The notes under the pieces were generated by a model. That model worked only from the letters and a program-made list of their open reading frames with translations. It was not told the DNA's origin and ran no database searches. A stretch of DNA of 63,454 bases, filler included, from Hausera hauseri (lineage: Eukaryota): NCBI GenBank assembly GCA_046269625.1. It is 11 parts of 11 records of this genome, joined end to end, with 100 filler letters (N's around TTAATTAATTAA, not from the genome) between each part and the next. Parts side by side here need not be neighbours in the genome. Positions count along the whole stretch, not along the records: positions 9,413 to 15,509 come from JBJURY010141094.1; positions 15,610 to 19,622 come from JBJURY010819975.1; positions 19,723 to 31,560 come from JBJURY010065550.1; 8 more parts are not named here. The stretch is one strand, 5' to 3'. Positions 2,891 to 35,706 of this stretch are shown piece by piece. Made by a program: the position numbers and the translations under genes. Position 1 is the first letter of the stretch. Every line of letters begins with the position of its first letter.

Positions 2891-2899
2891 GGAGTTCCA

Positions 2900-4475: not shown

Positions 4476-5731
4476 ACTGCAGAAATATTATATAAAATTT
4501 GGGGAAGATTTTTAATTTTCGAACAAGCTGCATCAGGATTTTTAGCTATCTGTTTCTTGGTACAGCTCATAAAAGCTAGAATTCAATTCGTTATAAACGG
4601 CTATGAAATATTTTCACGCAAAATTTTGACCGCAATCATAACGCCGTTTGGAAAATTTTTGAAGGCTTATGAAGAAATCAAATGGAAAAGCGACATGGAG
4701 AGACACTTTGGTTATTATAATCGGAAACGAAAGAAAAAACCTATATTTTATAGGACAAAGAGATACAATATTTCGAAAAACGATTCGGATGATGATAAGC
4801 CTAAGGGAGGAGACGCAGTCTTTAACATAAGCAACCGTATGACGCTTAGGCCACCTTTGCCAATGCTGCCCCCTTCGGCACCGCAATACGAAAACTGCGA
4901 TAAGAGATATATTTACTCCTATATTTCGGAAATTTATCAAAAGCCTTTTAGTCACGAAGGGACAAAAAAATACGGCGTGTTACGGAAAATGTACCGAACC
5001 AAAGAAAAATCCGAATTATGCTGCCAGCCGGTAGATGATCGCAAGGTAATATACTCTCCAAGGATCTCACGGAATATAGAAACTAATGCATTATTTTGGG
5101 ATAATACACGAATGCAATCCTTCCATAACCAAAACAGCCGAGAACCGCTAATCAATACGCCGGATCGAGACAACAAAAACAGTGTAAATAATGGATGATA
5201 TCCCATTGAAGAACTAAGGCAAGTAGTCGAAAATAAGGTACCTGAAATCACTATAAATGAGTACAAGATATCCGTCGTTAGACAACCTAAGATAAAAGAA
5301 GGTTGACCTTTCGCCAAAATTAGTATTGACGACTGGGAAGTATATGCACTAGTAGATACCGGATCAGAAAAATCATTCATGAAAAACGTACCGATACCAA
5401 AATCACTACGGAATCAACTACGTCTACCAATAGCAATGGATGCCGGAAGTGTAGGAGCTTTCGGACAAGAATCGAGACCAAAATTTAAATGGAACCCTAA
5501 TCTTAAAATAATGGAACAAACATTCCAACATGAATTTTCTATAATGGAACACTAACAGACAATGTCGTGCTAGGCTGCGATATATTGAGACGTTTGCCAA
5601 ATGTTGCAGTAGATTTGAATACCTCGAAGTTAATCGAGCTTGGATCAATAAGAGGGACCAAGATTAATAAATAAAGAGAACGCGTAGAAGTATGGATTCC
5701 GATCGACGAAAACATTCCGCCTAGAACGGAA

Positions 5732-6691
5732 TTGTTGATATTTGCGCAAATGTGTCAAGATGATGATTTTCCAGTATACTTTGAACCGAAAGAAACACTA
5801 AATACAGATATAATATTGAGCAACGTACTAACTCGAGTAGCATCCGGTCGAATACTCGTAAGGATAATGAATAATTCTCAAAATCCAGTAAGATTATATT
5901 CTAACATTACCTTGGAGCATACTTACAAGGTATCAGAAATAACGGTTGAAGAGAAACCGTATAAATACGCTGATTTTCCACCACACGTTGATACGAAGTT
6001 TTCACCAGAAGCTTATTGCCAGTTTTACCAATTATTATGTCGATATAAATCAATCATTGCAAAGGACGAAGAAGACATAGGCCAAGCAAAGACGTTAAAA
6101 TTAACTATACCACTTAAGAAAAAGCCTGGTTTCAACCTCGAAATCGACCTCGAGGAACGGAAAATGCCAAAACGGTATCCGCCGCCGCATTCCCCAAGGC
6201 CGGAGATAACCAAGGAGGTAGAACGTATGTTAAAGGCCGATATAATCCGGCCAAGTTTCAGATCATGGTATTCCCCTATTTTTATGGTTAAAAAGAAGGG
6301 TACCACGAAACGTCGATTTTGTATCGATTGTAAAGCATTAAATACTCTCATGATGAAAGATTTTTTTCCTTTACCATCCGTGAAAGAGGCTCTAGATAGG
6401 CTATCAGAAGAAAAATGGTTTACCACTCTGGATTTACAATCCGGATACTGGCAAGTAGAAATTGAAGACGAAGACAGCTATAAAACAGCCTTTAAAACAC
6501 ACGATGGAGTATACGAACTTAATGTTATGCCGTTTGGAATTACTACCGGTCCAGCCATATTTACCAGGATGATGAATAAAATGCTAATTGGATTTGAACA
6601 TGCATTTTCTTACTTAGATGACGTAATGATTGCATCAATAGACAAAAAAGAGCATCTGAAGGATATTGAGGACAATCTTATGAGGTTATAA
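5732..6691 (+). pseudogene. Ty3/Gypsy reverse transcriptase (with preceding spacer domain)
   Basis: WYSPIFMVKKK, RRFCID, FTTLDLQSGYWQV, KTAF, VMPFG, YLDD. Confidence 0.95.
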
Positions 6692-6875
6692 CAGGCCGGG
6701 TTAACACTAAACCCCAAAAAATTCAAATGGGCCCAAAACACTGTCTCCTATCTTGGCCACGTCGTTGAAGAAGGAGGATCAAAATTCGACAAATCATTGT
6801 TAAACAAGATTTCGGACTGTATGGAACCCCAAAACTAAAAAGAACTGGGACATTGGTTGGGCCTGTGTAGATATT

Positions 6876-7400
6876 ATGCTACCACATAACTCGAAAATCA
6901 ATGCGTCATTCTACCAATTATTAAAAAAGGGAACGAAATGGAGATGGATCGATGTTGAGCAAAAGGCATTCGATGAAAGGGAGAAGATATTAGCTAGTGT
7001 ACCAGTACTGAGATATACTGATTTTAACTTACCGTTTATTATTAAAACAAACGCAAATAAAGAAGGTATTGGATACGAATTAGCACACAAGAAGACGAAG
7101 AAATAGAACACCCTATCGCTTATGGAGGACGCTCCCTGAATAAAGCAGAGAAAAATTATTCAGTGACAAAACTAGAAACGTGAGCAGTAAAAGAACCCTT
7201 GAGGCATTTTAACGTTTACATATATGGACAGAAGATAATAATAGTTACCGATCACAAGGCAGTTACAACTTTAAAGGGACGAGGAAATAACCCTACATGT
7301 AGACTGAATAGGTGGATCGAAGAAATATCAAGATACAATATCGAGTTCAAATATAAAACTGGTGCAAAAAACGTGGATACAGATGAATTGTCCAGGTTGA
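6876..7400 (+). pseudogene. Gypsy RNase H
   Basis: LRYTDFNLPFIIKTNANKEGIG, HPIAY, EKNYSVT, TDHKA, RLNRW, NVDTDELSR. Confidence 0.9.
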
Positions 7401-7561
7401 AAACAAAGACAAATGCGATCATGACAATGAAGAAAAATCAGCTCGAAGAATTAGTAGACCGACAACGAACTTTAACGTCAGACGGAGCAATCAGAATTTC
7501 AAACGAACAAAAGAAGGATTGAGTTATCCAACAAATCATTGAATATGCCGAAGCAGACGTA

Positions 7562-8720
7562 ATGCCAAAAGGACACCAGTTAAAGATACATTTACAACGA
7601 CATAAACATAAATATTGTGTCTCCGAGAACAAGAACAATAAAAAAGTGCTGTATTACGAACGAAAAGGAAGAAAATTAGTATTTATACCCAAAATTCTAC
7701 GAAATAAAGTTTTAATGACCGAGCACGATTCGTATTTGGCAGGACACATTTCCTGGAAGAAGACGTTAGATAGGACGTTAAACAAATACTATTGGCCTAG
7801 TATATATATTGATGTGAAAAATTGGGTAAGCGCTTGTGATGTATGCGCGACTAAGCAGAGGAAAATGCGGAATTACATAGTAGAGCTGAAACCGATAGCT
7901 GTGCCGGACAGGCCGATGCAAGCCATGTCAGTGGGCATCGTAGAACCACTACCCACGACGAACAGAATTAACAGATATATACTAACATGCGTCGACTGTT
8001 TAACTCACTTCGTGGAGTTAGTAGCGTTATATGATTAGAAAGCAGAAACATTAGCCGAAGCCGTGGTAAGGAAAATTATATGTAGATACGGGCCGCCCGA
8101 TCAGATACTAAGTGATCAAGGGAGAAACTTTACCAGCGAACTATTTGATAAAATTACGAAAATATTCGAAATCGAGAGGTTAACTATGACAGCTTACCAT
8201 CCCGAATGTAATGAAATTATTTAGCGTATGAATGCTACAGTAATACGAATATTGTCAACCGCAGTCGCAAAAAATCAAAAGGATTAGCACGAATTCCTAG
8301 AAAGTACACAATTTGCCATCAATACTACACAACATCCCGCGACAGGATTACATCGTCATCATGATGTATGGACGAGAGGCAGCATTACCTACGGACTTAC
8401 GAACGATTCCGTATGAAGCAAATCTCGAAGAATTAGAATCAAATTTTGTAGAAGTTCTACAAGTTAGACTGCAAAAATTTTGGGTGGTAGCGTATACCAA
8501 GAAGGATTTAAAAGACAGTATGACAAGAAGGCATAATTGCACGATTTAAGAAACGGAGATTGGGTCTATGTGCATTACTCCATAGCTGAAAAGGGCACAT
8601 CGTTAAAACTCACTCGTACTGGAAGAGCACCTTACGAAGTTATCAGAATAACACACATTACAGTTTATAAAATAAAAACGGAATGGAAGAAGTTGTGTCA
8701 GTACAACGAATGGTGAAAAC
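7562..8720 (+). pseudogene. Gypsy integrase
   Basis: HDSYLAGH...YYWP...CDVC zinc finger; core SDQGRNF and TAYHPEC; GPY-like APYEV. Confidence 0.9.
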
Positions 8721-10749
8721 AGAGATAAGACCAAGTAAACAACATCAATTACGTGTAGAAGATACAAAAGCGAACCAGAAAACGAATCACAGGAAAGCCA
8801 AGACCTCGCCTATATTTAACAGAGCCATGTATTACATACAGATAGTCTTAGCACTATCATTGATAGCTTCATTTATTCCAAAATCCAAGGCTCAAGGAGG
8901 ATTGATTCAACAACTAAACAAATGGATAAAGGATGAATAGATAAAAACAAAAAGAAATAACTTAAGCACCTTAGATCGATTCAAGATCTAAAGTATGGAT
9001 CCAATACGAGACTGTGTGCTATTTAAGACGGACGGAGTCGTGAGAAAATCAGTAAAATACCAAGTAATTCTATGGAACGCGAATAAACGAGTAATGACCC
9101 ATTGAGATTTTCCGTATGGAGCTCGAGAAAGATGTTGTGTCACAAATTATAGAAACACTTATACCTTCACAGTGCGAATGTACTATAAAAACTACGAACG
9201 CACACAAGGAGAGATAAGGCCGCGAGTAAAATTAGTAATACCTGCCAGAGAACGGATCAATGCAACAGAACTCTACGACATAGTGAAGTCAACTGATTCA
9301 ATTAAATGGGCGNNNNNNNNNNNNNNNNNNNNNNNNNNNNNNNNNNNNNNNNNNNNTTAATTAATTAANNNNNNNNNNNNNNNNNNNNNNNNNNNNNNNN
9401 NNNNNNNNNNNNGACTTGATACGATGGTGGAAAGTACTTGATAGTGAGCTGGTTGCGAGAGCAGCAAGTGATTTTGGATTTAAAGAAGACTTAGCGTCAA
9501 TAGCATTGATGACAACAACAACAACACCAACAGCAGCAGATTGTACCTCTATAGAAAATTTAATTGTTGTGTTAAATCAAATGAGCATTCACCGATTGTA
9601 CGATACAAATTACTTTAATGCTGTTGAAAAGGTACGCGGTGAATTAAAGAACCTGAAAGTGAAAATAATAGACAAAGTACGAAACTGTAAGTTTATGTGG
9701 TCATCTTGTTGTTTGTCAAATGTGTTCCAACCCCACCACCACCAAAGTAACCCACCAATGTCCAGAATGTAAATGTACTGTAATGGAAATTGTACACATA
9801 AATGAATACATTGACTTTTCTGTAATGCGTGGAGTTTATAGGGGCAATTTGTTACAGTGACTCTTAATGTTGACACGTTTGTAAGAAAAACAAAACAGCA
9901 GGTTGGAGAAGTATATATAGCGATATAATTTCATTTCAATTTGTCTCTTTTTCTCTCTTTCTCTCTCTCTCTACGACAATGAATTCCGATGAAGCGTCAC
10001 TAGATTTGAGTTCTGCTGCTGCTGCTGCAAGTCAACCACGATACAATCAATATTCGGTCAGACCGTCTCGGTTGTACAAAATGGCTACAAATTGAACTAC
10101 CTACAAACTCCCATTCACTTGTCATTGGCGCAACCGGTCAAACTCAAGCAGGTGAAATACGGTTTGTTAGCAAAGAAAATCAGCGACAATGATTTGGATA
10201 CGATGGAACGTACGCTGAAAAACAGTGATTTGGTGTTGTCCAATAATAATCTGGACACATCATCTCTTTTTCTCAAGGGCAATATGAAAAATATTGTCCG
10301 TTCAAGTGGTAATGAAACAACAACAACAACAACAAAAGCAGAATCGACAAATTTGCCATCCGAAGGTGCTAAAGGCTGCTTGACGCTGAAATTGAAAGGC
10401 TACAAATAACTGTGTGGTGTTAAATCCCCAATATGGAAACTGGGGACGTTTAGTCTAATTTGACTTAATCATTGTGTGTGTATGTGTTTTTGATTATAAT
10501 TAATAAAAATATTTGAGCTCATGTTTTGTATTTTAGGTGATGAACAATGATGTATAGCGCGTAACCCGTTTATGTATTATTTCCCAACTTAAGCTTCATT
10601 CCCTTGTTAACTTAAAACTACGTAAAACAGAAGACAAAAACCAGTATACAAAATACGTTATTGCAATATAATACACCATGTACAAGGGAAAACAAAACAA
10701 AAATGATAAAAATCACAAATGTACGTAATTTTCAATAATGTGGCTGGAC

Positions 10750-13700
10750 TGAACTGGTCTGTCGGTGCAACAAATGTATCTGTGCATGTGCTTTACTTCA
10801 AACGTCCGTACGCCGAATTCTTATTCCGTCCCACCCACTTTCGCTTGTCATCGTTGCATGACAAAGCAACCTTTCTATTTGTGATTGTATACAGCTGGTG
10901 CTCAATCGATCGTATTATCGTTTCAGACACAACAGCCTTTCCTCCTTCTTTTCCATCTTCTCCATCTTGTCCATCATAGACGCGGCAATAATCACCGTGA
11001 CTTAGTTCCGTCTATTTCAGCTGGATGCCTTTTGCGCGCATTTTTGGTCCACAGTCCGTCAGAAGACTGTAGCACTTTGGGCGTAGAAATATCCATTCCC
11101 TGTACTGGACCTAGCCTTCGCTTTCGTCCTTGAAGCAGCCGATTTTGTTTGTTATCGCGCTGCTGTACAGCGGATAAACCGGCGGGTAGTTGGACGTGTC
11201 CAGTAGTCCATCTACTATCATTTGTCGGAGCAGCTGGTCTCGATTGATGTTTCTCAGCTCCAAAAAAAGCTGTCTGTGTCACCGGCAACGATATTTATCT
11301 CATAGCTGCCGCCGCCGTCGCCGCCGAAAATTTGTCGATAACGTGCTAAGTCGCGATACTGGAGCTCGTACATTCGCAACTTGCTCAGGTCCAGTACTAA
11401 TTGTCCGATGTAGTTTTGCCGTTCCAGTGCGACTTCTTCCCGGTTTAGAAGCACGGCGACCAATCCATAGGCAATATGCATTGACCACCTGAAATGAGCT
11501 TTGCTGTTGTACGTAACCAACCGCTTTTCGTTGTTGCACAGGTGCACATTGAGCTGCTTTTTGAGGTTCTCTATCGTTCGCCGTAAAGAGAATTATTTCT
11601 TAACTTGTAATAGTCCTTTTCGAACTTTGTACAAGCTGCGGCTCATTTTCCGGAATTTCCATCGATGTACGCCTTGAATATCGGCGCCTAATTAAAGCGG
11701 ATTGCACGATGCAGCTGTGTGACGCGTACACCCAACTTCATGTAAAACTGCAGCAGACGCCAATGAACCACGTAATTCAACTTCGGTTCATGCGTCATGA
11801 ACAGTTTCTTTACTTTTGTTGAGCCGCCGGGTGGACATTGGCTGATTGGTGCCACGGGTAATTCGTCCAGAGCGTCATGCAGCTCATCGGATACCACGAG
11901 ATCAACTTCCATTAAGTAGCCGACGGAGCTGCTTTCTGTCGTGTTTGCTGCTGCTGTTGCTGCTGTCAGACGTCCATTAATGCATCCAATTCCGGTTTTT
12001 CGACAACCCATTCAAATTATCCGTACGACAAGAGTTGCGAAAGCGCCCCGCCGTACAGGTTATTAATGTCGATGTACAACATTGATGTTTTATCATCACT
12101 AGTTACGTGATGCTTGTTGACAAACGTCATGCCGCCACGAATGCCGACATCAAACAAGCCGTCCATTTCTGGGTCTTGCAGCAGCTCAATGTCCCGATCA
12201 AGTGACATTAGAGCTGATGCCAAACTCATTCCCAGTATGGAGTAAAAGTTTAGCGGCTTCAACCTATCTTCCGCCAACGCTTTAGCCCGAAACGCTTGGA
12301 ATACGTCGGCCAGCAAGTACACGTCCAGTTTCAGGTACCGAAGCATGTATTCCAACATGTTTCTGCAGCCGAGCTCTGTCCACGCTTCCTGTGCCCTGTG
12401 GTACTCCTCCTCTCTGATTCCGGTCCATTGTGGCGGCAATTCCTCTGTTGTATGAAGCCGCTCGTATGACACAGCAAAGTCGTATGGGAATATGCCTTTG
12501 CTGCGTGCAATATGCGCAGGGAACTGCGTTAGCGTTATCGGCACATCCGGCAAGGCACTTACGAGCTTTCCTAGTGACTCATTCAGGAACTGCAGTGAGT
12601 CAAGAAACCGTACCTGAAACCAGTTTATACGTGCTTATAGGGACAAGTACCTCTCCATCGTTGTTGGAATTATGGATAATTCCCAGTGCGGAAATCCGCT
12701 GATGGCCCATTTCAGAATATGGTGACAATCATAACCCCGAAAGTTATGAAATATCACCGGTAGGAATGGCCGCACACGCCTTGCAAATTCCATGCAGTGC
12801 ATGCTGCTCCCAGATATCGACCGGTAAAATGATCATGGTCTGGTACTAGCCGTTCCTGTGCATCGAACGGCAATATTTTGTGGTGGCACAGATAACATTC
12901 ATCCGTGATTGCAAACGTCAGGCTTTCATCTTCATCTGACCACATCAAGGGTTTGTTGCTATTTCTACTGTACCAGAGTGCGACTTCCGTTTCTACTATT
13001 GTTTCCAACTGATGCAGGAAATCACGTACGCAGTTCCAGGCATGAAAAACGTAATATCGCGGTTGAACTGCGGCTTTTATTGGGACAAACAACATACCGA
13101 CGGCGATTGGAACATGCTTTTTGTCATAAATGTTGTGTCGTGATAAGATAGCTTCGATATCGGCATACACAACGTATGCCGGACTGTCCGTCTTCGACCA
13201 GTCACTAATCGGAGCTTCTTTTTGAGTGGCATTAGTACATAGTTGTTCCCGTTGAATTTTGTCCGCGCAGAGTCACGTGTTTCTCCCATGTTGTTGCTAA
13301 TCTGAATCCGTGCAGACATACAGGACACCATTTACATTGTGTACGCTTTTGGACAAACTGATGGTGAACCATATTTAACAGTCTCTCCAGATTTGTCACT
13401 GCAAAGTAATGGAATTTTTCCTTTTGCTCCAATCACAACAAATTTATTGGGCGACCATTTGGGTTCCGAGTACGGTAGATTATATCTACGTGGGGGTTTA
13501 TGTAAATTTCTTCATCCGCCGGTATTTCTACGATTGTGTTGTACTGCAGCACATTTATTGCCACTGTCGGATTAAGCCGTTCAAATGCCGGAATGGATTT
13601 CAGTTTCATCGGAATCCAGCTTTCATCGAAATTTAATTAGGAAAAATATTTCTGATGCTGTTTTGGACGAGATGCACTATGTCCGTCCACTTCGTCGTAT

Positions 13701-14041
13701 TCCAATACGGCCAGAATAATGTAAATAAAACAGTATCCGTCATTAGTATTTTTTACATTCACTACCGCCAGAGACTGCTTCAAAGCTGCAGGTATCGGTA
13801 TGAATGATCGCCCGGACAAATATATTATGTCACTCGACTTCGTTACAATAAAGCCGAGAGCGACAATTCGTATAATTTGCCATCCACTACCCTTTTTTGT
13901 GTAGTTGGCGATTTTCTCCTCGAGCTTTTCGCCTACGTCGGCAATAAAATCGTCGGAATACGGTACGGCTTGATGTGACAGGTACCACTGTTTCATGTCA
14001 CCTTCAACGTTTTCAAATTCTGCAAGTGCATAATACTGCAC
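10750..14041 (-). pseudogene. Protein-primed family B DNA polymerase with endonuclease VII-like zinc motif, frameshifted
   Basis: YADIEA (ExoI); CYLC...DHDHFTGRYLGAAC; FHNFRGYDCH (ExoII); RFLDSLQFL; KGIFPYDF; DVYLLADVF (ExoIII); YIDINNLYG; YKLRNNSLYG; GDTDSF; DDKR. Confidence 0.92.
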
Positions 14042-14178
14042 TTTTCAGTGGTGGTAGTGTTGGAATTTGGCCACCTCTGTTTCCAATCGGTTACACACAT
14101 GAGCGGGTACATCCTTCAATTACGTTGTTGCTGTTGTTTTCGCCGACATGTCCACCGTCATGTCCACGTACGATCTGT

Positions 14179-14859
14179 TCAAGCCGTACTTGACTGTAAT
14201 GTTGGGAATTCTCTCCCCCCTTCTTGTTGATGCTGTTCCTGCTGCTGCTGCTGGGTACTGTTTCTGATTAAGTCGTCAAGACTTGTTGAGGCCTGATGTT
14301 TCCTACTGGTTGTTGTTGTTGTTGTTGGTATGATGCTGCTGCTGCTGTTCATAAATATTTGTTTCTTCGACCGCTTAAACTGGTTCAAGTGGTCCTTGTG
14401 AGTGTTGTAGAATTGTTCACAGTTGATTTCATCAACTATAGAACAACAACCGGGATAAACATAGATCCGTTTAATGTGAAGCGTTGTGGTGATGCCATAA
14501 TACTGCTCCATTGCAGTACGGCAACCATCAACGTCATGCACTCTACTGGTACAATAATGTGGATATGTGGGGCAATGCGCAAGAATCATCTTCTTTGACC
14601 GCGTAAACGGCCCGAGATAATGTTTGTGCATCTCGTAAAAGTCGGCGTACGGGCACTGCGTTGAAGTATTGCACGTGAGACATAGATATGTGTCCGTCCC
14701 TACAGAGTAGTACTTCGCCATCTGCTGATGGCACTGCTCCTCATTTACGTGAATGCGTGACACGCAATACACGGGATAATGTTTGCATTTCTTCTGAATG
14801 AGAAACAAATTAAAGTAAGCGTACAATACAATATATATAAAATTATTAGAATAAAACAC
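14179..14859 (-). CDS. Unknown protein with a tandemly duplicated Cys/His-rich domain, upstream of pPolB
   Basis: Repeat 1 CKHYPVYCVSRIH....CHQQMAKYY...FYEMHKHYLGPFTRSKK; repeat 2 CPTYPHYCTSRVH....CRTAMEQYY...FYNTHKDHLNQFKRSKK. Confidence 0.55.
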   Translation of the reverse strand: MFYSNNFIYIVLYAYFNLFLIQKKCKHYPVYCVSRIHVNEEQCHQQMAKYYSVGTDTYLCLTCNTSTQCPYADFYEMHKHYLGPFTRSKKMILAHCPTYPHYCTSRVHDVDGCRTAMEQYYGITTTLHIKRIYVYPGCCSIVDEINCEQFYNTHKDHLNQFKRSKKQIFMNSSSSIIPTTTTTTSRKHQASTSLDDLIRNSTQQQQQEQHQQEGGREFPTLQSSTA

Positions 14860-16482
14860 TACTTCTATGGTGGGGTAGGGGTGCTGATATAAGGGAGACT
14901 ATAAATATTTGCCTCTCTTAGCACTCAATGTCACAGTAAGTAAACAAACGTATGGAAGAGTACATAGAAAGCGAGATTCATAGATTGACCGATGACATTT
15001 TGACCGTCCATGTGTTTGATGTTCAGTACCTATGTGAGCTGTCGGAAACGAGAACAATGAGCAGAGAATATATTGAATTGATAGTCAGATTTCTGTTCGT
15101 AAAACATATCGAGGATTAAATGAGACGAAAACAACAACAGCAACGACGACGTGTTAATTTTCTCATTGGACTTGTATTTACTGCTTCGCTTTGTATTGTA
15201 ATGAAAAAGTTGATTAACCGTATTTAACCACACATAAATATGTTATTTCGCTACGTGTTTGTTTTTACTGTGTGTGTGTGTGTTCAATATAGATTGCAGT
15301 ATAAATACTTGTGCTTCTTCTTCTTCTCATATGATTATACAATGTCTCACTTGACGACACAACTCATTAGCTTATACCACTCATTCGAGGGTCTCCGGAA
15401 CCACCTGTACAATCTTGATGGACCGTTGGACAATGCTCGGTATTTGCCTCCGGAAGAGCTACTTCTACTTGCTGAGCAGAATTGGAGGGCACGAGAACCC
15501 GACTTACGCNNNNNNNNNNNNNNNNNNNNNNNNNNNNNNNNNNNNNNNNNNNNTTAATTAATTAANNNNNNNNNNNNNNNNNNNNNNNNNNNNNNNNNNN
15601 NNNNNNNNNTACAGATTCTACTTTAGAGGTAGAATACTGGATGAATTAGAACAATTAATCGATGTTGGGATTATACCCGACGAGACCAATAGAATAGTGG
15701 CAATAATAACTAACGAGCAGACTAAAGAAGAAGCCATACGTAAGGCAAAGACGGAACAGTGTGTAGGACAAATCATGGGAGTCCGAGACGCTGCAATGTA
15801 TTTTGAGTATTTACAAACAGATGAAGACAAAGAACAATATGACAAGAACTTAGTTCCATTAGGTACAACACCGGCGACCATCCAGAAACAGAAACGGCCT
15901 GTAGGTAGGCCTAGAAAAATCCGAGAAGATGTCGATTACAATGGAGAGCTAATTAGAGAATTGCGACAGATGTCAATTCCCACTTTTAGTACGGATAATG
16001 AAGAACTAAGCGAATTGATGAAGAATTTAATACGAATAGTAAACTATTCGAGCCTCCGAGGAGACACGTTAGATGATAAAGAAAAAGTGATCTTTAACGC
16101 AGCTAGGACAATGAGAAGTGCGCGTTTCAAATTATCAAAAAGTAACTTGACGGACGAAGCAGTAGTTGAGAAGATTATGGTAGAAAATTCAATAGAGGAA
16201 TTGAGAAAGGTATTGCTCTATCTAGCAATCAAGACAAATCCTAGTCGAGAAAATGAATTCAATCGGGCTATTAGCTTGGCGCGAAAAGCAGCAAGGAAAT
16301 TACCCTGCGAAGTAAATTGGCTTAAAATATTCGATAAGGAAGAAGATAAAAGAGCCACTGGTAGTAGACTAGAAGACGCGCTACGGAATCTGACGGTAAC
16401 AGGCAATAATACCCGGAAAAACGAATCTAACTGGTTAATCAGCCTACTCACGATAATGATGTTAATGAAACAGATAGGTGCC

Positions 16483-18240
16483 GTCACTGTCTACGATTGT
16501 GATAAATTTAAGCTCGGACAAAAATACTCTCTAATGGATTTAGAAGCATGCGAGGATGCCAGACCCCACAAATTGGAAACAAAAGAAAAGAGTTATATCC
16601 TGTACCAACAACAAGAATTGATATCCTTGGACGGAATGGAGTGTATGCTTAAGCGATTTCGTAGCATTTTTCATTGTGGATTAATGTATGGACATTCTTC
16701 AATAATCAAACCAACGACCCCCCTGATTCCAATGAATTTAGAAAGACAACACTGCAAACAGGCTAAAGAAACTGGAAAACTGAACTGGGATAGCATGGAA
16801 ATAGAAATGCAACCAGGGAAGATAATCAGGGTAAATAAAGTAGTAGTCGGAAGGTTAGATATGCACAACGGACATTGTAATGGAGTAGAATACGACACTG
16901 GAAAGGGATTAGAACCCAACATAGTGGTCGTAGACTTTTACGAATCAGAGATGCGAACACAGAAAGTATTGTTCCACAGCGTCACCAAATTATATACTGA
17001 GAATCAAAAATGCCATTTACAAGACGGAACATATCCCTTTCGAAGTTCTGTTATTATATGGGAACCTCCCACAGGAAAAAGCTGCAACTTCATTAAGATC
17101 AAAGAATTGAAATTCAATGAAACTACTGGGAAAAGATATGCGGATAAGGCCTATAGTAATTCAAGATCACGAGAAGATGTAGCAGAACACTCTACACCCG
17201 CCATATTAATTTCGGAACAACACGGACTGAAATTCATTAAGAAAGAAGTGATTTCGCGTTGCGAAGTTGTAATGTTTGCCACCAACTATGAAGCATTTTT
17301 TGTTGCAGAAACGGAAGTAAATGCGAAAACCTTTCAACTGCAAACACAGGACGTTCGAATGGAAGATTATCTGAAGAACCGAGATGATTATTTTTATTAC
17401 AAAGGACAAGCGGGAATAGCTGAATTGTACCACAAGATGATAACGAACGACTGTAAGTTGGATATGGAAATTATGAGGACAAAGTTAGCCCTTATTTATG
17501 CAAACCCAGAGCTGGCGTCACCAATAATTCCCATGAGAGAAGGAATTTTTGGCCGAGTTACAGGTGAAGTTTTGTTAACGTATGAATGTGAAAAACGAGA
17601 TACGCCGATCAATGTCGAAGAAAAACGATGTATACAGGAACTTCCCGTTATTTATCAGAGCACTCCAAGATTAGCTATGCCACTTACCAGAGTGTTGTTG
17701 GACAACGCGACTCAGCCAACAATCCTTAAGGATTGTAAAGCAAGCTTAGGAGAACCCATGTTTAAACACAGCGATACTAAGTGGGTTAGTTTACCAAATG
17801 GAGGTATCAGTGATACCCCAGACAAACTGGCAGGAACAAATCTCGCAAGAGGAATTACCTATGATAAATTTTTAGACACCTCATCACAAGGGATTTATAG
17901 ACCTAAGGAAATCGAAGCTTTCAGACAATTTCTTGCTTTTCCACGACAATGTACTCATGAATTAAATCGAGCTATGGCTTCTGTAATAGATGACACTCGA
18001 CATCAGGCTAAATAGGAATCGTTGTTAGGAGTAAATCACTATCAACGAGTAACTACGAAAATATTTTCTAAAATTTGGGGAAGATTCTTAATTTTTGGAC
18101 AAGCCGTATCTGGATTCTTAGCAATCTATTTTATGGTGCAATTAGTAAAGGCCGTAATCCAAGCAATCATAAATGGTTATGAAATATTTACATTAACAGG
18201 ATTTTCTTGCAAAATTTTGACTGCAATTATTACACCCTTC
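16483..18240 (+). CDS. Chuvirus (Jingchuvirales)-like envelope glycoprotein domain
   Basis: Signal peptide WLISLLTIMMLMKQIGA (from 16432), then VTVYDC, SLMDLEAC, IFHCGLMYGHSS, GHCNG, GIFGRVTGEVLLTYEC, CIQELPV, TRVL, GIY...FLAFP and WGRFLIFG...AIINGY. The cysteine spacing and motifs follow the chuvirus G pattern (YDC, CGMHSH, AGEV...C, CY.ELPV, GIY, MFP, IHGY). Confidence 0.85.
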
Positions 18241-18919
18241 GGTAAAATGCTTAAAGCCTACGAAGAAAATCGATGGAAAAATGATGTGGAACGACATGTT
18301 GGCTACCACAACTACAAGCGGCGAGCAAGACCCTTCTTCCTATTAAGACGTAAAACTAAGAAAACGATAACCAGAAGAGATGATTCGGAGGATGACGAGC
18401 CTAAGGCAGGAGAAGCGTTCCCTAGACAAAATAGACACAAAATGTATTCAGTGAACAAAGCACCATTGCCCATCATGCCGCCGACAGCCCCGGTATACGA
18501 AGATTGTGATAAGTCTTCTACGATGTCATACAGATCAGCATTTTGTCAGAATCCCTTCCACTTTGAAGATCCTTATGAAGGAACAAAACAGTACGGAGTG
18601 TTAAAGAAAATGCAAATTACTAACCAACAGCGAGCGGAAGATGATCATGGAATAATATACTCGTCAAGAATACCTCGCAACATAGAATCCAAATCGACAA
18701 TCTGGGAAACTCATGGAACGAGATCGTTTTCAAACTCAAGAATTCAAGAACCATTAATTAGAAACAATGAAAGTGGCGTAGTGAACAATGATCTATATCC
18801 AAACGGGGAACTGAAACAACTGACAGAGAATATTGTATCGTCGCCAGAGATAACGATTAATGGACATAAAATTTCTTCAATTAGACGCCCCAAGGATGTA
18901 TCGAATTGTTACGGGACAG

Positions 18920-19260
18920 TTGTGGAAGGAAGACCCTTTGCAAAAGTTACCATCGAGGATTGGGAAGTTTATGCCTTAGTGGACACCGGATCGGAGAAGT
19001 CCTTTATCAAATTAGAATCAATACCGCCGACACTACGAAAACAATTACAGCCAGCATCTTCATCAGATCCAAGTAGTATAGGAGCCTTCGGGCAAAAATT
19101 CAAACCGAAATTTAAGTGGAGCCCTGTAGTTCATATAATGGGTCAGACCCTTACGCATGAATTTGCTATAATGGATCAACTAACTGATGACGTAGTACTA
19201 GGTTGTGATATACTGAAACAGTTACCTAATACCGCAATAAATCTACAAACTGGGAAATTG
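18920..19260 (+). CDS. Retropepsin aspartic protease domain, in frame with the glycoprotein
   Basis: RPFAKVTIEDWEVYALVDTGSEKSFI ... DVVLGCDIL. Confidence 0.93.
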
Positions 19261-20041
19261 GTTGAACTCGGACCAATAAAAGGGATCAAAACAATGAAAG
19301 AAAGGAAATCAGGAGAAGTATGGATTCCCGTTGATGAAAATATTCCACCTTGGACTGAAATGTTAATTTATGTTCAAATTCGAGAGGAAGACGATCAACC
19401 GGTATATTTTGAGCCGCAAGAGGATGTTAACCCAAATATCATACTCAGTAATATTTTGACAAGAGTAACGACAGGACGAGTACCAATTAGATTGGCGAAC
19501 AATGCACCAACTCCTGTAAAGCTGTACGCCAATACCACATTGGGCCACACTTATAAGGTGTCAGCTATAACAATCGAAGAAAAACCGTACAAATACGCCG
19601 AATTCCCACCTCATGTTGAAACNNNNNNNNNNNNNNNNNNNNNNNNNNNNNNNNNNNNNNNNNNNNTTAATTAATTAANNNNNNNNNNNNNNNNNNNNNN
19701 NNNNNNNNNNNNNNNNNNNNNNTAGTGAAACCACGATCAAACCAATCAATATATTGATTATTGATCATTGATTTCATATCTCCATATAAAATTCCCATAT
19801 AATATTGATTATCGATCCTGGAGGGGGGGTTGGTTTGGTGTGCTCACTTCCCCCTACTGACATAACATGAATGACAAACTGGAAATCTGACTTTAGTACA
19901 ATATTGGTTGAAAAAAAACGAAAATTTTATGAAATTTCAACATTCCTCTGCGTGTTAGGGAAAATTGAAGAAGTTCCAAATGATGTGACATTATTGAGAT
20001 CATATTGCATAATCATAGTTTTGTTGTCGAATATTTTTCGT

Positions 20042-20621: not shown

Positions 20622-21139
20622 TGGAAATTATCAAAAAAATAGAGATACAACAATACTTTATTAACAAGAAAAATTACCCAATATCAATGAATACAATACT
20701 AATAGTAGCACGGTGAAGTCCTTTCGTCAACACAATCAAGATTAATAGAATAAGTCTTTATCAGTATCAATTTCGCTGCGTCTGATTTCGTTCTGTCTCT
20801 CCAATTAGTTCTGATCTAGCTCTGTTAGTATTTGGCTTTTATACTGTAACGTTTCTAGCGTATTTCATTTAGTGCCCATAATTTTCCAATAAAAACTCTT
20901 TTACTACATTATATCTTATATAATGGCTTTCTTTTATGATTCTTTTTAGATATAATTTCATTCATTCCGCTTTTTACACTCATTTTATTTCTAATATCTA
21001 CATAAATATTATTTACAATGATTTCATTAGTCGCCCAACTCTGCAAATTAGTTTTAGCAATTTGGACAGGCTGTACTATGGGTCTCTATTGCGTTATGAC
21101 CTGGACCAGCTGTCTCATTTTGACTTCTATTCTTCAACA
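20622..21139 (-). repeat. 3' LTR of copy C (left boundary approximate)
   Basis: PPT AGGGAGGAGAAA (21140-21151) directly followed by TGTTG; TATAAAA near 20840; AATAAA near 20660; candidate end ...TTTCCA. Confidence 0.7.
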
Positions 21140-21506
21140 TTTCTCCTCCCTGAGCGGCATCCTCGGATGTGCCTATTGCGTCAGGAGAGGTGACGCCCGA
21201 TCGAGGTGGTCGTAATAAGTCCATACGTTGTCTTAAGCTTGATCCTGAACTGGTACTTGCTTGATTTTCCCTATGGTTTGTCTCCAACTCGTAGCTAAAA
21301 TGGGGCTTTATTATGACCACTCTGGTATAATTGCCATTTGAGTAATACTTCAAGTCCGTCGCTTGTACTCTACACACAGCACACGTGGTTTTACCGTTTT
21401 CTAACGTCCACATTTCTAGACAATCTGGACAGTACTTGTGTCGACAATCCAAGTTATTTAGAACTACATAACCTTGTTTTAGATTGGCCTCACACCGGAT
21501 TTTCAT
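21054..21506 (-). CDS. RING-HC finger protein (putative E3 ligase) overlapping the PPT and 3' LTR
   Basis: C...CRHKYCPDC...W....CAVCR. The first Cys of the RING appears mutated. Confidence 0.75.
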   Translation of the reverse strand: MKIRCEANLKQGYVVLNNLDCRHKYCPDCLEMWTLENGKTTCAVCRVQATDLKYYSNGNYTRVVIIKPHFSYELETNHRENQASTSSGSSLRQRMDLLRPPRSGVTSPDAIGTSEDAAQGGEMLKNRSQNETAGPGHNAIETHSTACPNC

Positions 21507-21569
21507 TTTCTTTTTTTCCCCAGTTTTCGTCGTGCAAATCGACTCATTGTAATTTCAATGGGTTCCATC

Positions 21570-23644
21570 GCTAGTCCTCCTTCATCTTGGTATAGATAAC
21601 CATGTATTCTTTTTTGTTTCCTGTTTATTGAACTCTTCTTGGGATCACATACCACGGGCACTAAGGTCCAATCGCTTATAACATCTCGATCTAAATCGGG
21701 AATTTTACCAGTGTATCAGTATTTCTGATACTGTTTCTTAAGTAATATCTTTACGGACTTGTCCACAGGGACTATGAGTTTACCATTCCTTTTTGACTGA
21801 AATATTGGGACAACATATTTACCGATCCTTGGATTCTCCCATACGTACGTATTCTTATATACTTCCCATGCGGGCATCAATTTGACGAAAAACATTGCTT
21901 CTTGATTCTTTGTTGACTATAATATTCGGTAGTTACCAATATTCTGGGGTAATCCTTGGTGGTGGTGAACTGGATGTTGTCCGCGGAATCTTTCTTTCGT
22001 AATACATTTACTTCCGTTATTTGCTCCCTTTGTTTACTTGGAGGTCTTCCAAATTTTTTGGTTTAAATCGGCGTTCGCGGTTTGGATGAGTTTTCTTTTT
22101 GTAAAGTTGGATTTTGTTATTTGATTTATATCCTTCTTGTGGTCTTTTTTCGCCTTCTTTACTTTTTCCTTAAACAAGTAATCGAGGAAAGAAGTTTTTC
22201 TTTTAGTCGTTTTTCTGATTTCGGTTTCTTGGATCCTATCCCCTTTTTCTAGGTACTTTTTGGGAATTTCTGGTATTTTGAATATATAGCTGTTTTCAAT
22301 GACTTTAGTAAGCGATTTAACGTCATAGCTTGTACTAGGTTTTTCGTCTATTTGCTTTCTGCTATGGGATCTCCCGGGGTTAATTCCTTGAATAGTCACT
22401 TGATAATTCCACTCTTGTGTTTTTTCGACATTCTTTGGGGGAGAGTAGGGACGGAAATGCCTCCTGTATCGGTTACTTGATCCTTCTATTTCATGGAATT
22501 TACGTAAGTTCTTGCCAGGGTTACTTGGGATCCATTCATGTTCCCATCTTAATCCAGCATTTATGTCCCTCAAGTATTGGGAAGGTTGACTAGCAGTTAG
22601 TAATCAATTTATTTTAATATGTCCTTCACTCATTGCTTTGATCATTAGCTTAAATCGACCTTCCACGGTCGGGGGTAGATAGCCCTTTCATTCTTTTACC
22701 TTTATCTCTATTTGTTTTATTACGGTTGGATGGGTTTCCATTTCTCTTATCCCGGCTATATATGTAACGGGTATTCCTAATTTTTCTATAATCATTTCTA
22801 CTTGGTAACCCACTATGATACAACCATATAGGCAATGTGTCATATCCTCTTGTAACAGTTTACTATCTTTTCCTGATATCAATTGTTCCCTTTTTAGTCC
22901 GGTTACTTTCGCGTAAGTTTCTTTTATCCTTTTTTCTCGGATTAATTATTTTTGAGTAGATTTCCGTTCCACTTGCTTCTCGTATCGATATCGCAATCGA
23001 AATGTAGTTTTCCTCGTCCTCTTCTCCGTAGTTTACTGCGACGATCCGAATGTTCATTGTGTCTGCAACTAATCTAAATGAATGTAAGTGCTCTTCCTGA
23101 CCTTCCTCAGTGGGTTCTTGTCTAAACTCTAATGGCGGCAATGGTTTGGTTATTATATCTTCTCTTGTTGTTTCAGTCATCAGTTTTACGGGCAAGGCGG
23201 CTATACGGAATTCCAGTTCGTGGTTGAAATCTAGAAAATCCTTACTGTTGAATACAAAGGTGCTGTATCGATTTTGTCTTCCTTGAAACGAGTTCCGTTG
23301 CTGGCTTTTCAAACGGTAATAAATTTCTCCATCTTCGAGATGTATGAACAATTTTTGCTTTCCGTCAGTCTCGTAATGGGCTATTTGTTGTAGGTTATAT
23401 GCTCTTGCATCTTTATCTTCTCGCCATGCATATAAATAAATTGTCCTATCTTCTTCCGTGGTTCCTTTTAAATTGTTAGGGATGTTATTGATTTTCTCAT
23501 ATCGGACGAAAGTTTGTCCTTGTAGCACCGTACTAATCTATATATATAGACTTGGAATTTGGGATTAATACGGTTACGTATTGTTGTAGAAATTCGTCGA
23601 TGCTATGTCGGCTTGCCTGCATATCAGTCTGAGTACTTACCAAT
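21570..23644 (-). pseudogene. Frameshifted accessory ORF homologous to 56612-58717 (IPNNxK domain plus DEDDh-exonuclease-like domain)
   Basis: HSIDEFLQQY, NIPNNLKG, IRIVAVNYG...ISIREASGTEIY and CLYGCIIVG...YIAGIREMETHP align with LSIEQLLSQY, QIPNSLK, IRILTVSLG...ISDLKGKTLY and WLFGTIVMG...YLAGVVDILKHP. Confidence 0.7.
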
Positions 23645-23774
23645 CTGAAAAAGAAAATGTAAAGGTTAATCTTAAAACAAAGTATGGCTTTAAACCAAAA
23701 CCAATTCCTTGTTTGGTGACAGAATAACCTGATCTGTAGTTGTCAAGTTATTTTATCATACGGGTCCACTGGAT

Positions 23775-25140
23775 TTACCATTCCCTTAATTCCCATTCCG
23801 AATTTTTAGGACGCTTAAAATAATGATTTTTGGCAACTAATCGAAAAATCGCAATTAACATAATGAGAACAAATGTTGATAGTACTGCAGTGGATACAAT
23901 CGGTAAGACGGTTAATCCTAGCGGTGTTTGATTAGTAACTGGAGTTGTAGTTTCATCGTCTCTATCCGCATATAGGTGCGGCTCCACACGAATTTCATCT
24001 AGGGTACGCAACGTAATTGTTTGGTTTTGCTTATTCTCTGCGTGCACTTGTACTAGGTATTCAGATTGTAATTTTAGTAAATTGCACTCTGTTTGATAAG
24101 TATTTTTAAATAATGTTACAATTTGATTATTATATGTTGTTCGACAACTTATGTGTATATCGTAATTTTGTTTCTTTTCTACAACGAGCACGATTTTATG
24201 TCGGTGCGCCGAATATCTAATAGGTATGCTTTCCAACTCTGCTTTAGGTATGTTGCTCGCTGTAACAATTAGGGTAGTGGGACTAACTTTAGTGGTTGAC
24301 TCTTTGGTCGTGGTTCCCACTGCAATTTTCCATATTCTATTTTCTGGATAGTAGGTTCGTAATTGTATACTTGGTTTATTATGTCGTACCTCGTATAAGT
24401 CAAATTTTATTTTGAACTCATGGTTCACGGGAAGTTTACAACAGGGGTGTTGTACACCTGCGCGAATAGAGCAATATTCTATTTTCGGGGTTGGTCCAAT
24501 TGCTGCTTCGAATGCAATACTAATTTCTCGATGGACAGTCAGCTCTGTCCGGGTGTCTATTTGGATGCATTATTTTTCCTTGTTTACAGAGATTCTTTGC
24601 ATATTCTTGTCTAATAATCTTATACCTGGGTGGTGAATCGTAGCATTTCGTCGGGTTTTATTCCATGATGTCTTTTCCATGCAGGAATAACTAATTGAAA
24701 TTGTGGTTTTGTTTCAATATAAACTTCGGATGAGTCCGGTAAGTACAGACGATAGGTAAGGTTATAAGTATTGCAAAAATATATGTCGAAACACTGAGTA
24801 TAGTCTACACGTTCAAAATTACAATTCTTCGCTTCTTTTCTTGTTACATCATGAAAGACAATTTGAAATCTTCCGAAATCGTGGTGTGATCTCCAAGCCT
24901 TGAATCCAACACATACGGAGTGTGGTGAGAAATAATAATTTAAGGTTTTCTTGTCTTTGGACCTCTTCCGGAGTTAATCCCTTTTTCTCTGCTTTATTCC
25001 TCGCCTTCATTCCACTTTCTCGTATCCCATATATGTCTCCTAGTGTAGATTCTTTAATCCACCATTGGGTTTGTACCCTCGGCACATAAGAAGCAATAAT
25101 TGATAATGCCAAAACTATCTGAACGTACGATATTGGTCTA
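23775..25140 (-). pseudogene. Putative type-I membrane protein continuing from the integrase C-terminus
   Basis: Signal-like YVQIVLALSIIASYVPRVQT in frame after integrase (also in copy A: YIQIVLALSLIASFIPKSKAQ); C-terminal TM LPIVSTAVLSTFVLIMLIAIFRLV with a short basic tail. Confidence 0.6.
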
Positions 25141-25199
25141 GCAATTATTGAGGAAGTTTTTATCTCGCATTGGCGTAGCTTGTAACGTTTATTGGGCCG

Positions 25200-28100
25200 T
25201 ATCTCTGTCTTAACAACTCTTTGTACCGATACGACTTCTTCCTTTCCATTCTTGTTGATGTTTACTGTGGTTGGCGTAACTCTGCTAACTTCATATGGTA
25301 CTCTGCCTGTACGGGTCAATTTCAATGAGGTGCCTTTCCTGGCTACTGGATAATGTACATAAACCCAATTTCCTGGTTCCAAACCATGTGGTTTTGCTTT
25401 CTTATTCTATTGCTTTTTAAACCGCTTTTGATATTCTTGGGATAACGCCTTGGCGATTTTCGAACACTTTTGCAATCGCGTCTGTAGCACTTCTGCAAAA
25501 TTTTGTTTTAAATCCTCGGGATTAACCGTGTTTGGCCTCATTCCTAAATCCGTAGGTAACGCGGCTTCACGTCCATACATCATGAAAAATGGCGTAAATC
25601 CTGTTGCTGAGTGTGTAGTGGTATTAATAGCAAACTGAGTTCCTTCTAAAAATTCGTCCCAATCTTTTTGGTCCTTCGATACTACTGTTTATAATACGCG
25701 TATGACGGTAGCATTCATCTGTTCGACCATTCCGCTACACTGAGGGTGATATGCTGTAGTTGTTAATCGTTCGATTTCGAATATTTTGGTGATCTTCTCG
25801 AATAGTTCACTTGTGAAATTCCTTTCTCGATCTGTGGGTATCTGGTCTTGGGGGCAGTATCGGCAAATAATTCTTCTTACTACGATTTCTGCAAAGGTTT
25901 CTGCCTTTTGACCAATTAATGCTATTAACTCGACAAAATGAGTTAATCGATCAATACAAGATAAGATATACGTATTGTTCTTGTGGGTAGTAGGAAGAGG
26001 TCCTACGATATCCAGAGACATGGCTTGCATGGGTCAATCGGGCACAAAAATTGGTTTTAATTCGGCCATGTAGTTTTTCGTCTTCTTTTGTTTTGTTGCG
26101 CATACTTCGCGGGCATTTACCCAATTCTTTACATCAATATAGATATTGGGCCAAAAGTATTTATTTATTATTCTTTCTAATGTTTTCTTCCACGATATGT
26201 GTCCGGCTAAATATGAATCATGTTTCGATGTTAACACTTTGGTTCGTAAACCCTTTGGAATAACTAGCAATTTTCTTCCTTTCCGTTCGTAATATAAAAT
26301 ATACTCATAGCTCTTGTTATTTAAGACGCGGTACTTATGTCCATGTCTGTGTAAATGTTTCTTTAACTGTCGGCCCATCAGTATGATGTCTTTTTTAGCC
26401 AATTCTATAATCTGCTGATTAACTTTATTTTTTCTTTGTTCTTAGGAGATTTTAATTGCATTATCCAACGATAAGGCGCGTTGGCGATCTACTACTGCTT
26501 CAAGTTGTCTTTTCTTCATTACCGTGATTGCGCTTGATTTAGTCTTTAATCTCGATAATGCATCGGCATCTACATGATTATTTCCTGGTTTATACTGGAA
26601 ATCGATATTGTGTCTCGATATTTCTTCGATCCATCTGTTAAGTCTACATGTCGGGTTATTTTCTTGGCCTTTTAAAGTCGTAACGGCCTTGTGATCATTG
26701 ACAATTATAATTTTCTGCCCGTATACGTAAACGTTGAAGTGTCGAAGTGCTTCTTTTACGGCTAGAGTTTCTAATTCGGTAACAGAATAATTTTTCTCGG
26801 CCTTCTTCAAGGAACGCCCTCCATAAGCAGTTAAGTGTTATAATTCTTCAGCTTATCTTTTCTGTGCTAAATAATATCCAATGCCTTCTTTACTAGAGTC
26901 TATCTTGATTATAAAATGTAAGTTAAAGTCTGGGTATCGTAAAACAGGTTCGCTTGTTAATATCTTCTTCATCTCATCGAAGGCTTTATAATCGACGTCC
27001 GTCCATTTCCATTCAATTCCTTTTCTAAGTAGACGATATAAAAGTGCATTAATTTTTAAATTATATGGCACAGGCTGCGTAATATCCGCGGAGTACTAGC
27101 CAGTGCCTTAACTCTTTCTGATTTTGTGGTTCCATGCAATCTGATATTTTGTCTAATAACGATTTATCTGGTTTCGATCCTCCTTCTCCAACTATATGGC
27201 TAAGGTAGGATAGTGCATTCTGAGCCCATTTACATTTCTTCCGATATAGTTTCAATCCGGCTTGTTCCAAAATCATCAGCGTGTGTTCAATGTCCTTCAA
27301 ATGTTCCTCTTCTGTCCTTGACTCTATCATTACGTCATCAAAATATGCAAAGGCATGATGCAGTCCCATTAACATTTTGTTCATCATTCTTGTAAATATG
27401 GCTGGTCCGGTAGTAATACGAACTGCATGACGTTAAATTCATAAACACCATCGGGTGTTTTGAATGCTGCCTTATAACGGTCTTCGTCCTCAGTCTCTAC
27501 TTGCCGATATCCGGATTGTAAATCCAGACTGGTAAACCATTTTGCTCCTGACAGTCTGTCTAAAGCCTCTTTCACTGACAGTAATGGGAAGGAATATTTC
27601 ATAATAAGATTATTTAAGGCTCTGTAGTCAATACAAAATCGATGTTTGTAGTACCTTTCTTATTAACCATGAGGATTGGTGAATACCAAGACATATAGCT
27701 GGGCCTAATTATATCGGCCTTAAGCATTCGTTCGACTTCCTTCGTTATCTCGGGCCTTATTGAGTGTGGCGGAGGGTACCATTTTGGCATCTTCTGGTCT
27801 TCCAAGTCTATTTTTTCGTTCGAACCAGGCTTTTTCTTGAGTGGAATAGTCAGTTTTAACTCTTTCGCTCTACCGATATCTTCTTCGTTCTTAGCGATAA
27901 TCGATTTATAGCGGCATAATAATTCATAGAATCGACAATAAGGCTCAGATAAAAATTCAGCTTCGACATGAGGTGGGAATTCGGCATACTTATAAGATTT
28001 TTCTTGAATAGTTATTGGCGATACTCTATAGTTATTTCCTAGAGTGGTATAAGCATAAAGCCTGACGGGTGTCTGTGCGTTATTAGCTATTCTGATCGGC

Positions 28101-28400
28101 ACCCGACCGAAGTGTACACTTGTTAGTATATTGCTGAGTATTATATTTGAATCTAATATATCCTTTGGTTTAAAATGTACCGGTTGATCGTCATCTTGCT
28201 ACATTTGGGGGTAAATTACCATTTCTATTCTTGGTGGAATGTCGTTGTCCACAGGTATCTATACTTCTTTAAATTTTCTTTCTTTGGCGTTTTTATACCC
28301 TTATTTAGTCCGATTTTTACCACCTTTCCCGCTTGTAAGTCGATCACTATATCTCTGTATCTATCAAGGCATAAACTTCCCAATCTTCGATAATGATTTT
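25200..28400 (-). pseudogene. Gypsy pol (PR remnant, RT, RNase H, integrase) of copy C
   Basis: ALIDT; LDLQSGY; YFDD; YPDFN..FIIKIDSS; NYSVTELETLA; HDSYLAGH; LDIVGPLP; TTAYHPQCSGMVE. Confidence 0.92.
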
Positions 28401-29079
28401 GGCGAAAAGTCTTCCTTCTGTCACCGTTCCGAAGCAGTTTGATGCATTCTTTGAGCGTTTTGTTGCCGATATCTTATGCCCATTGATTCGGATTTTTGGG
28501 GAGGATACTATGTTCTCTACCAGTTGCCTTAACTCTCCGTTTGGGTATAATTAATTGTTTTCGATGTTTAAATTTTCTGCTTCGTGAGTACTGATTAATG
28601 GTTCTCGATTGTTAGTGTGTAGTTCGGTATTCTGGAAGGTTTTTAACCTTGGATTGTCCCAAACCGTTGATCTATTTTCTATGTTCCGAGGTTCTCTCGA
28701 GGAATATAATATTCTGGGATTGTCGAGGGATTGTTGATAACACATTTTCCGTAGAATTCTGTAACGCTTCGTTCCTTCATAGGGGTCTTCTATATTAATT
28801 GTCCTTTTATGTATTTCCGTCTGGTATGAACTCATTGATCGTTTGTCACAGTCTTCATAGACTGTTCGCTAGGGGTAGCATCGGCAATGGTGCTTTAATT
28901 ACAGAGTACGTCTTATGTCTATTTATTCCTGAAAGTACTTCTTCTCCCTTAGGCTCGTCATCATCTCAATTATTTCTTCGTACATTGGGTTTTGTAAATT
29001 TCCGCTTTTGCAAGAATATAGGTCTTCCTTTTCTCTTACGATTATAATAACCGACATGGCGTTCTACATCCGATTTCCA

Positions 29080-35600: not shown

Positions 35601-35706
35601 GAGGCGGAAGATCGGAGCCCGTCTATGGGCCCGACGCGGCGGCGGCGGACGCCCGACCGTGTCCAACCAAATAAGTCAGAGGGCGCCGGCCGCTGCGGGC
35701 ACCACA
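35601..35706 (-). repeat. GC-rich self-complementary module, copy 2
   Basis: Reverse complement reads TGTGGTGCCCGCAGCGGCCGGCGCCC...GGGCCC[13-nt insert]GATCTTCCGCCTC and matches 2354-2446. Confidence 0.85.

Follow-up and report, generated by a model that had tools for sequence, protein, structure and literature searches.

A decayed Ty3/gypsy element of Hausera hauseri with a chuvirus-type glycoprotein in frame ahead of its protease

Retrotransposons in which the envelope gene (env) stands between gag and pol have already been described. In the giant gypsy element Burro (GYPSM1) of planarians, env lies in frame between gag and pol within one large open reading frame (ORF), its product matches the fusion proteins of mononegaviruses, and decayed copies are known in a related planarian (PMC6431247, section on the element). 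GAG-ENV-POL elements with a gB-type, chuvirus-like env have been catalogued in nematodes, bryozoans and flatworms, where they are reported as non-monophyletic (PMC13524379, main text). Here, a stretch of 63,454 nt from the Hausera hauseri assembly GCA_046269625.1 (hereafter the window) is analysed, with the focus on the element that occupies positions 15610-19622. With a probability of about 0.85, this contig holds the decayed remains of one copy of a multi-copy Ty3/gypsy GAG-ENV-POL element, the env of which was likely inherited in an old, Burro-related lineage and not newly captured. Its layout is genuine and has been reported before, from flatworms, nematodes and bryozoans; it represents neither a new architecture nor a fresh capture. 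An earlier note on this DNA had proposed an independent capture and an arrangement that it did not recognise from described elements; Burro (PMC6431247, same section) and the GAG-ENV-POL elements (PMC13524379, main text) have it.

The window consists of 11 contigs joined by ten identical 100-nt spacers (N44, a 12-mer, N44), and the focal element corresponds exactly to one whole contig, bordered on both sides by such artificial spacers (15510-15609 and 19623-19722). Frame +1 from 15610, on the plus strand like all the features that follow, encodes 801 aa before it meets a stop (18013-18015), the sole break in 1,337 codons; the 535 aa behind the stop reach the end of the contig. The frame opens within a ubiquitin-like domain (Ubl), of which the contig end leaves the C-terminal part (15610-15702; E 0.002 with a helical+Ubl profile from 5 homologs), and passes through a basic GRP[KR] motif that we take to be AT-hook-like (15895-15921; also in 5 of 14 homologs examined) and a helical domain (15991-16329) that occupies the position of the Bcl-2-like domain of Burro. 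An internal signal-like hydrophobic segment follows (16432-16482), predicted by hydropathy and matched by one at the same position in the homologs, and leads into the ectodomain of the glycoprotein G (16483-18081), which contains the one stop. The transmembrane (TM) region and a subsequent hydrophobic stretch (18082-18240; TM 18082-18174, second stretch 18184-18240) were placed by hydropathy and by PF24664 positions 527-605. A 229-aa linker, coding by its codon-position bias (18241-18927), then connects G to a retropepsin-type aspartic protease (PR; 18928-19224, with LVDTGS at 18976; Pfam RVP, E 2.8e-7), and a conserved domain between PR and the reverse transcriptase (RT) comes last (19261-19575); segments homologous to it are found in P0006, P0004 and P0014 (E 1e-8 to 5e-7), the relatives being labelled P0003, P0004 and so on throughout. 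No separate initiator for G is present at the signal, and the frame of G continues into the sequence on either side.

By its fold, G belongs to the class III fusogens and there to the chuvirus/gB type. The Pfam family PF24664 (Monjiviricetes_fusion) matches the sequence before the stop (E 3e-41) as well as that after it (6e-16), and the AlphaFold model of G reaches a pLDDT of 92. In Foldseek searches with this model, the top match was herpes gB in the PDB (E 1e-13) and a chuvirus-type G in the set of viral models (E 3e-34, TM-score 0.73), which upholds the chuvirus-like glycoprotein of the earlier note. By sequence, the single G finds no match in the PDB; a 75-row G profile alone does so, with herpesvirus gB as 39 of its 40 matches (best E 1e-4). 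No furin motif was found in the focal frame.

Four further decayed copies (A, C, D and E) lie in the window and are 64-75% identical over long matches; their closeness there is no evidence of linkage, because the contigs are separate and joined by artificial spacers. Copy A (4476-9312, plus strand, many breaks) comprises the G TM, the linker, PR, RT, ribonuclease H (RH), integrase (IN) and, continuing the frame of the IN C-terminus, a second signal-like segment. The other three are on the minus strand. Copy C (21057-31560, many breaks) contains the helical domain, G, a partly deleted PR, RT, RH, IN, the second signal, a second ectodomain with TM (23778-24973), nuclease-like ORF pieces (22346-23180) and a RING finger (21057-21554). 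Copy D (36257-41599, several breaks) holds a Gag C-terminal domain, a degenerate zinc knuckle, a long helical region, Ubl, the helical domain and the first half of G, and copy E (48522-54931, many breaks) runs from Ubl through the helical domain, G, PR, RT and RH to the start of IN. The order composed from these copies is Gag-...-ubiquitin-like-helical-G-PR-RT-RH-IN. The pol order in the window copies, PR-RT-RH-IN, is that of Ty3/gypsy (Metaviridae), and the RT of copy A has Ty3 RT as its best PDB match (E 3e-32), followed by 8r0s (E 3e-24) and HIV (about 1e-10). The Gag C-terminal domain of copy D (E 9e-4, profile from five homologs) and its zinc knuckle lie about 4.3 kb upstream of G, with the frame broken several times between them; the interval contains the long helical region, the ubiquitin-like domain, an AT-hook-like motif and the helical domain. 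The Ubl piece of copy D matches Pfam ubiquitin with E 0.015, and its PDB matches are mostly ubiquitins; a ubiquitin-like domain before env is weak by itself but strong as part of the shared helical+Ubl module, which in its full form in copy D reaches E 2e-18 against the profile from 5 homologs. The pieces sum to 14.4 kb, Gag N-terminus and long terminal repeats (LTRs) excluded, a length that is composite over subfamilies because the copies are only 64-75% identical.

Most of what the earlier note had read from these contigs holds. This applies to the Ty3/gypsy assignment, to the single frame with one stop from the signal through G, TM and a linker put at about 230 aa to LVDTGS, and to Gag upstream of G in copy D. 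Its order G>PR>RT>RH>IN for copies A, C and E stands for C and E, copy A starting inside the G TM region and running to IN, and its length of at least about 15 kb is to be read as the composite sum just given.

Selection on the frame was assessed from codon-position differences, each copy being compared against the focal frame domain by domain. Third positions differ most in every domain and copy (0.33-0.58, versus 0.00-0.30 at second positions, linker included), and in nearly all of these comparisons they are followed by first positions, which differ at least as much as second ones. Third-position divergence is alike in G (0.42-0.57), linker (0.52-0.54) and PR (0.44-0.53); in the linker, second positions differ by 0.24-0.30 in all three copies compared. 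Coding (purifying) selection therefore acted on the frame during the divergence of the subfamilies, and the breaks arose afterwards, a result that agrees with the earlier placement of env before pol in the polyprotein of the protease. In C and E, the two further copies that span the site of the 18013 stop, the aligned codon is a non-stop, as had been claimed; the comparison scored stop or no stop, and not the CGG and TGG that had been named. By truncating G ahead of its anchor, this stop, private to the focal copy, leaves that copy dead. Its position as the sole break, directly before the TM, could also be taken for a programmed read-through site yielding both secreted and anchored G, but this is very improbable, given that the stop is missing from both covering copies and from the single-ORF homologs and that the other copies have many private stops of their own.

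The same organisation recurs in natural proteins. A full HMMER scan gave 555 proteins at E <=0.001, of which the best 150 were examined, and the best relatives among the matches listed are long polyproteins of 25-33% identity. Of 24 proteins that were domain-scanned for G-pol order, four (P0004, P0006, P0013 and P0020) have G-PR-RT-RH-IN in one natural ORF, as does P0154 (4,844 aa); P0014 has G-PR-RT-RH and ends after RH, and Gag or a zinc knuckle occurs together with G within one ORF in P0003, P0009, P0016, P0017 and P0020. Among 152 proteins, a protease follows G in 13 and RT-like matches precede G in one (P0095, with a partial G), while P0060 has an RT-like match without PR and is placed among stand-alone Gs. 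The relatives share with the window element the helical+Ubl module and the post-PR domain, and Pfam Bcl-2 matches weakly just before G in P0008 (E 1e-3), P0017 (0.055) and P0005 (0.2), which is the order of Burro. Word-index protein searches were less productive, with one match among 3,174 longer candidates and none among 3,689 of similar length or 2,216 very long ones, and no relatives were found in metagenome contigs, viral contigs or phages. As side observations, P0004, P0005, P0009 and P0154 carry two to eight protease-like domains per ORF, P0154 also having ankyrin repeats, and P0006, a full G-pol polyprotein, carries the database label of a hypothetical protein from a Flavobacteriaceae metagenome-assembled genome, its source probably being animal DNA in a bacterial bin.

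These homologs bear on whether G could have come from a virus that inserted separately into a gypsy element, or whether the order is an artefact of assembly. The window strings together short contigs from a repeat-rich assembly, and no contig of the sequencing runs X1 or X2 covers the whole stretch; nevertheless, the order is identical in copies 64-75% alike, the frame is continuous over both G junctions, and unrelated natural ORFs have the same order, so that such an origin is almost certainly wrong. A nested insertion with its own termini, which the earlier note had named as a possible refutation, is ruled out by the homologs together with the artefact. In run X1, 8,522 contigs cover 30 of 30 bins, only 376 of them at >=99%, and in run X2, 625 contigs cover 29 of 30 bins; this coverage fits a large family of divergent copies and is not a copy number.

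Phylogenetic analyses address the origin of the glycoprotein. In a FastTree tree of 106 ectodomains over 493 columns, built after dropping the 47 of 152 hits that spanned <400 residues, the window G falls in a 17-row clade (SH-like 0.966), in which PR follows G in 12 of the 16 other rows and the remaining four end at or before the TM. Stand-alone Gs, including the named chuvirus protein P0040, lie outside it. That this family captured a chuvirus glycoprotein independently, within its own lineage, would be compatible with the chuvirus Gs being the best viral fold matches, with the non-monophyly of the GAG-ENV-POL elements reported in the main text of PMC13524379, and with the long branch of the window G. 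Against it, the window G is 22-31% identical to the polyprotein-embedded Gs of its clade and 19% on average to the 89 other rows (maximum 22%; P0040 21%), the motif RTK(L/M)A, picked after inspecting the sequences, occurs in 12 of 17 clade rows and in 0 of 89 others, the flanking modules are common to the polyprotein-embedded relatives, and the pairs (P0004,P0154) and (P0013,P0020) are recovered in both the G and the RT trees (7 taxa). Since G groups with polyprotein-embedded Gs and not with chuviruses, the capture put forward in the earlier note is largely refuted and, overall, improbable.

The nematode non-canonical endogenous retroviruses (ERVs) of Sacco et al. 2022 reportedly have a continuous gag-env-pro-pol ORF, and Anakin elements are said to carry env 3' of pol. 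Burro resembles the focal element in having env in frame with PR in one ORF, a ubiquitin-like domain followed by a helical one ahead of env, an additional domain that separates PR from RT, and decayed copies; its helical domain is Bcl-2-like and its PR-RT domain dUTPase-like, the focal counterparts being matched to them by position only (PMC6431247, section on the element). It also has MATH, BIR and ankyrin domains, for which Pfam gave no match in the window pieces scanned, and is longer (>30 kb, versus at least 14 kb for the focal element), and a membrane protein after integrase, predicted in copies A and C, goes unmentioned for Burro in that section. The GAG-ENV-POL 'ancient errantiviruses', especially Smed_errantivirus_1-6, likewise have a Ty3/gypsy pol and a gB-type, chuvirus-G-related env before it, but are present as intact copies, often flanked by LTRs, whereas the copies of the focal family are broken; the main text of PMC13524379 does not use 'polyprotein', 'in-frame', 'ubiquitin' or 'Bcl'. 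The nematode ERVs, as cited in that text, are also metaviruses with env and pol flipped. In the domain I-II pattern, the G rows of six planarian Smed_errantivirus resemble the window G by eye, while the nematode rows in the same alignment part do not, and the window G appears, by eye, nearest to the planarian entries. From this likeness, a flatworm host would be slightly more probable than not. Anakin and chuvirus Gs belong to the same glycoprotein family, PF24664 (PMC10084718 and PMC12440569, passages on these proteins), but Anakin is a BEL/Pao element, another retrotransposon family, and stand-alone chuvirus-type Gs lie outside the clade of the window G, which is part of a retroelement ORF.

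Several points weigh against the favoured reading of the contig. None of the window copies is open from Gag to IN, and a scan of the window for polypurine tracts and LTR repeats found neither the paired LTRs nor the target-site duplication that the earlier note had looked to for confirmation, nor a primer site; the contigs stop before the element ends. The window helical domain as Bcl-2-like is unproven: against the homologs' Bcl-2-like regions hhalign gives E 0.015 at a probability of 3%, its model (pLDDT 46) has no Foldseek match, and in a structure comparison Bcl-2 family chains appear at ranks 20, 40 and 48 (Z 3.6-4.2) amid generic helical matches. The PR-RT domain has no dUTPase match in Pfam or the PDB. 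In addition, the topology is drawn from hydropathy alone, the tie to Burro and Smed_errantivirus is one of domain order and comparison by eye, and the window branch is long (1.42) and shifts its position between two RT trees as well as between the small RT and G trees. As a separate observation, a short purine run followed by TG (19855-19845, minus strand), 120 nt before a contig end, was picked by eye as a candidate polypurine tract and 3' LTR start; no partner was found for it.

We infer that the active ancestor made one polyprotein, and that this was threaded through the membrane is a sound inference. In the steps proposed, which draw on signal-peptide and retropepsin biology, Gag, Ubl and the helical domain would remain cytosolic while the internal signal sends G into the lumen of the endoplasmic reticulum, where signal peptidase would free the N-terminus of G and leave the Gag-side chain anchored. 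The TM would then stop transfer and return the chain to the cytosol, with PR-RT-RH-IN hanging from G until the element's protease cuts them loose, and the second signal after integrase would put a second membrane protein into the lumen, anchoring Pol at both ends. With Gag and Pol held at the G-bearing membrane, enveloped particles could be released by budding and could infect further cells through class III fusion. Fusion of this class does not depend on cleavage by furin, for which no site was found. A single chain of this kind implies a 1:1:1 ratio of Gag, Env and Pol, which is unusual among enveloped retroelements, and the env of errantiviruses is translated from a spliced RNA. It is thus conceivable, if doubtful, that with the DNA order as seen G and Gag came mainly from spliced or subgenomic RNAs, the threaded polyprotein being a minor product; against this stand the lack of an initiator at the signal of a G that is in frame on both sides, the coding selection on the linkers, and the single ORF retained by the relatives.

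The segment after integrase adds to the predicted topology. In copies A (8650-9312, plus strand) and C (25150-23778, minus strand), the IN C-terminus continues unbroken into the second signal-like segment, followed in copy C by an ectodomain and TM. Of the five homologs with IN, four (P0004, P0006, P0013 and P0154) have a signal-like segment after it and all four a later TM-like segment, P0020 ending just after IN. Between the post-IN ectodomains of the window and those of the homologs there is no alignment (best E 0.009-0.014, from a very small search), and those of copies A and C show little codon-position bias (0.48/0.39/0.48 and 0.50/0.51/0.57). No published account of a second membrane protein after integrase was found in a search that took in PMC13524379 but did not include Repbase, Grohme 2018 or Sacco 2022. 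Tentatively, and on balance doubtfully, the chain may be a membrane-threaded polyprotein in the style of togaviruses and flaviviruses. It would run from signal, G and TM through PR-RT-RH-IN to a second signal and a fast-evolving second ectodomain with TM, the hydrophobic segments, four in all, being conserved; Pol would be tethered at either end, and the second protein would be an undescribed receptor-binding partner of the fusogen. If true, a retrotransposon would here possess an entry apparatus of two glycoproteins, the partner having a role like that of gH/gL or gD for herpes gB.

Further observations concern the 3' regions of these and other gypsy elements. Downstream of TM-bearing ORFs lie mutually homologous ORF pieces (23180-22346, 58774-56615 and 59885-59238, all minus strand; E 2e-7 to 1e-3), which have no Pfam match and presumably resemble a DEDD-type exonuclease domain. 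Rotifer LTR elements carry DEDDy ORFs (PMC5408684, passage on these elements). The RING finger of copy C (21554-21057, minus strand; Pfam zf-RING_2, E 1e-4) stands at the 3' end of its accessory region. More distant gypsy pieces at 59231-63454 and 55032-59130 (minus strand), with RH-IN and then a signal, TM protein and nuclease-like ORF, are possibly 3' halves of related families. Another gypsy element (41700-48421, minus strand) has, after IN, an ORF (45250-44270) that by eye resembles an F-type env at the usual 3' position; its product shows a hydrophobic peptide and a motif for basic cleavage but has no Pfam match. Elsewhere, there are a decayed Polinton/adintovirus-like region (9413-15509, minus strand) with a type B DNA polymerase (E 6e-10) and endonuclease VII, a broken F-BAR gene piece (2593-3804, plus strand; FCH, E 3e-4) beside mariner fragments (1558-2488), and further mariner-like pieces near 35515-35756 and 55034-55351. 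With their Polinton-type polymerase, mariner and other LTR elements, the remaining contigs would represent a repeat-rich part of an animal assembly.

Because the layout is already known, the element opens no new class. What it contributes is a further family, rich in copies and divergent (about 30% identity), within the retrotransposons that bear an envelope, a group that has received little study. The Gag-Ubl-helical-G-PR core is common to that group. The point of interest is the predicted topology, in which Gag, Env and Pol would assemble as one membrane-spanning chain, together with the role that the protein after integrase may play in it.

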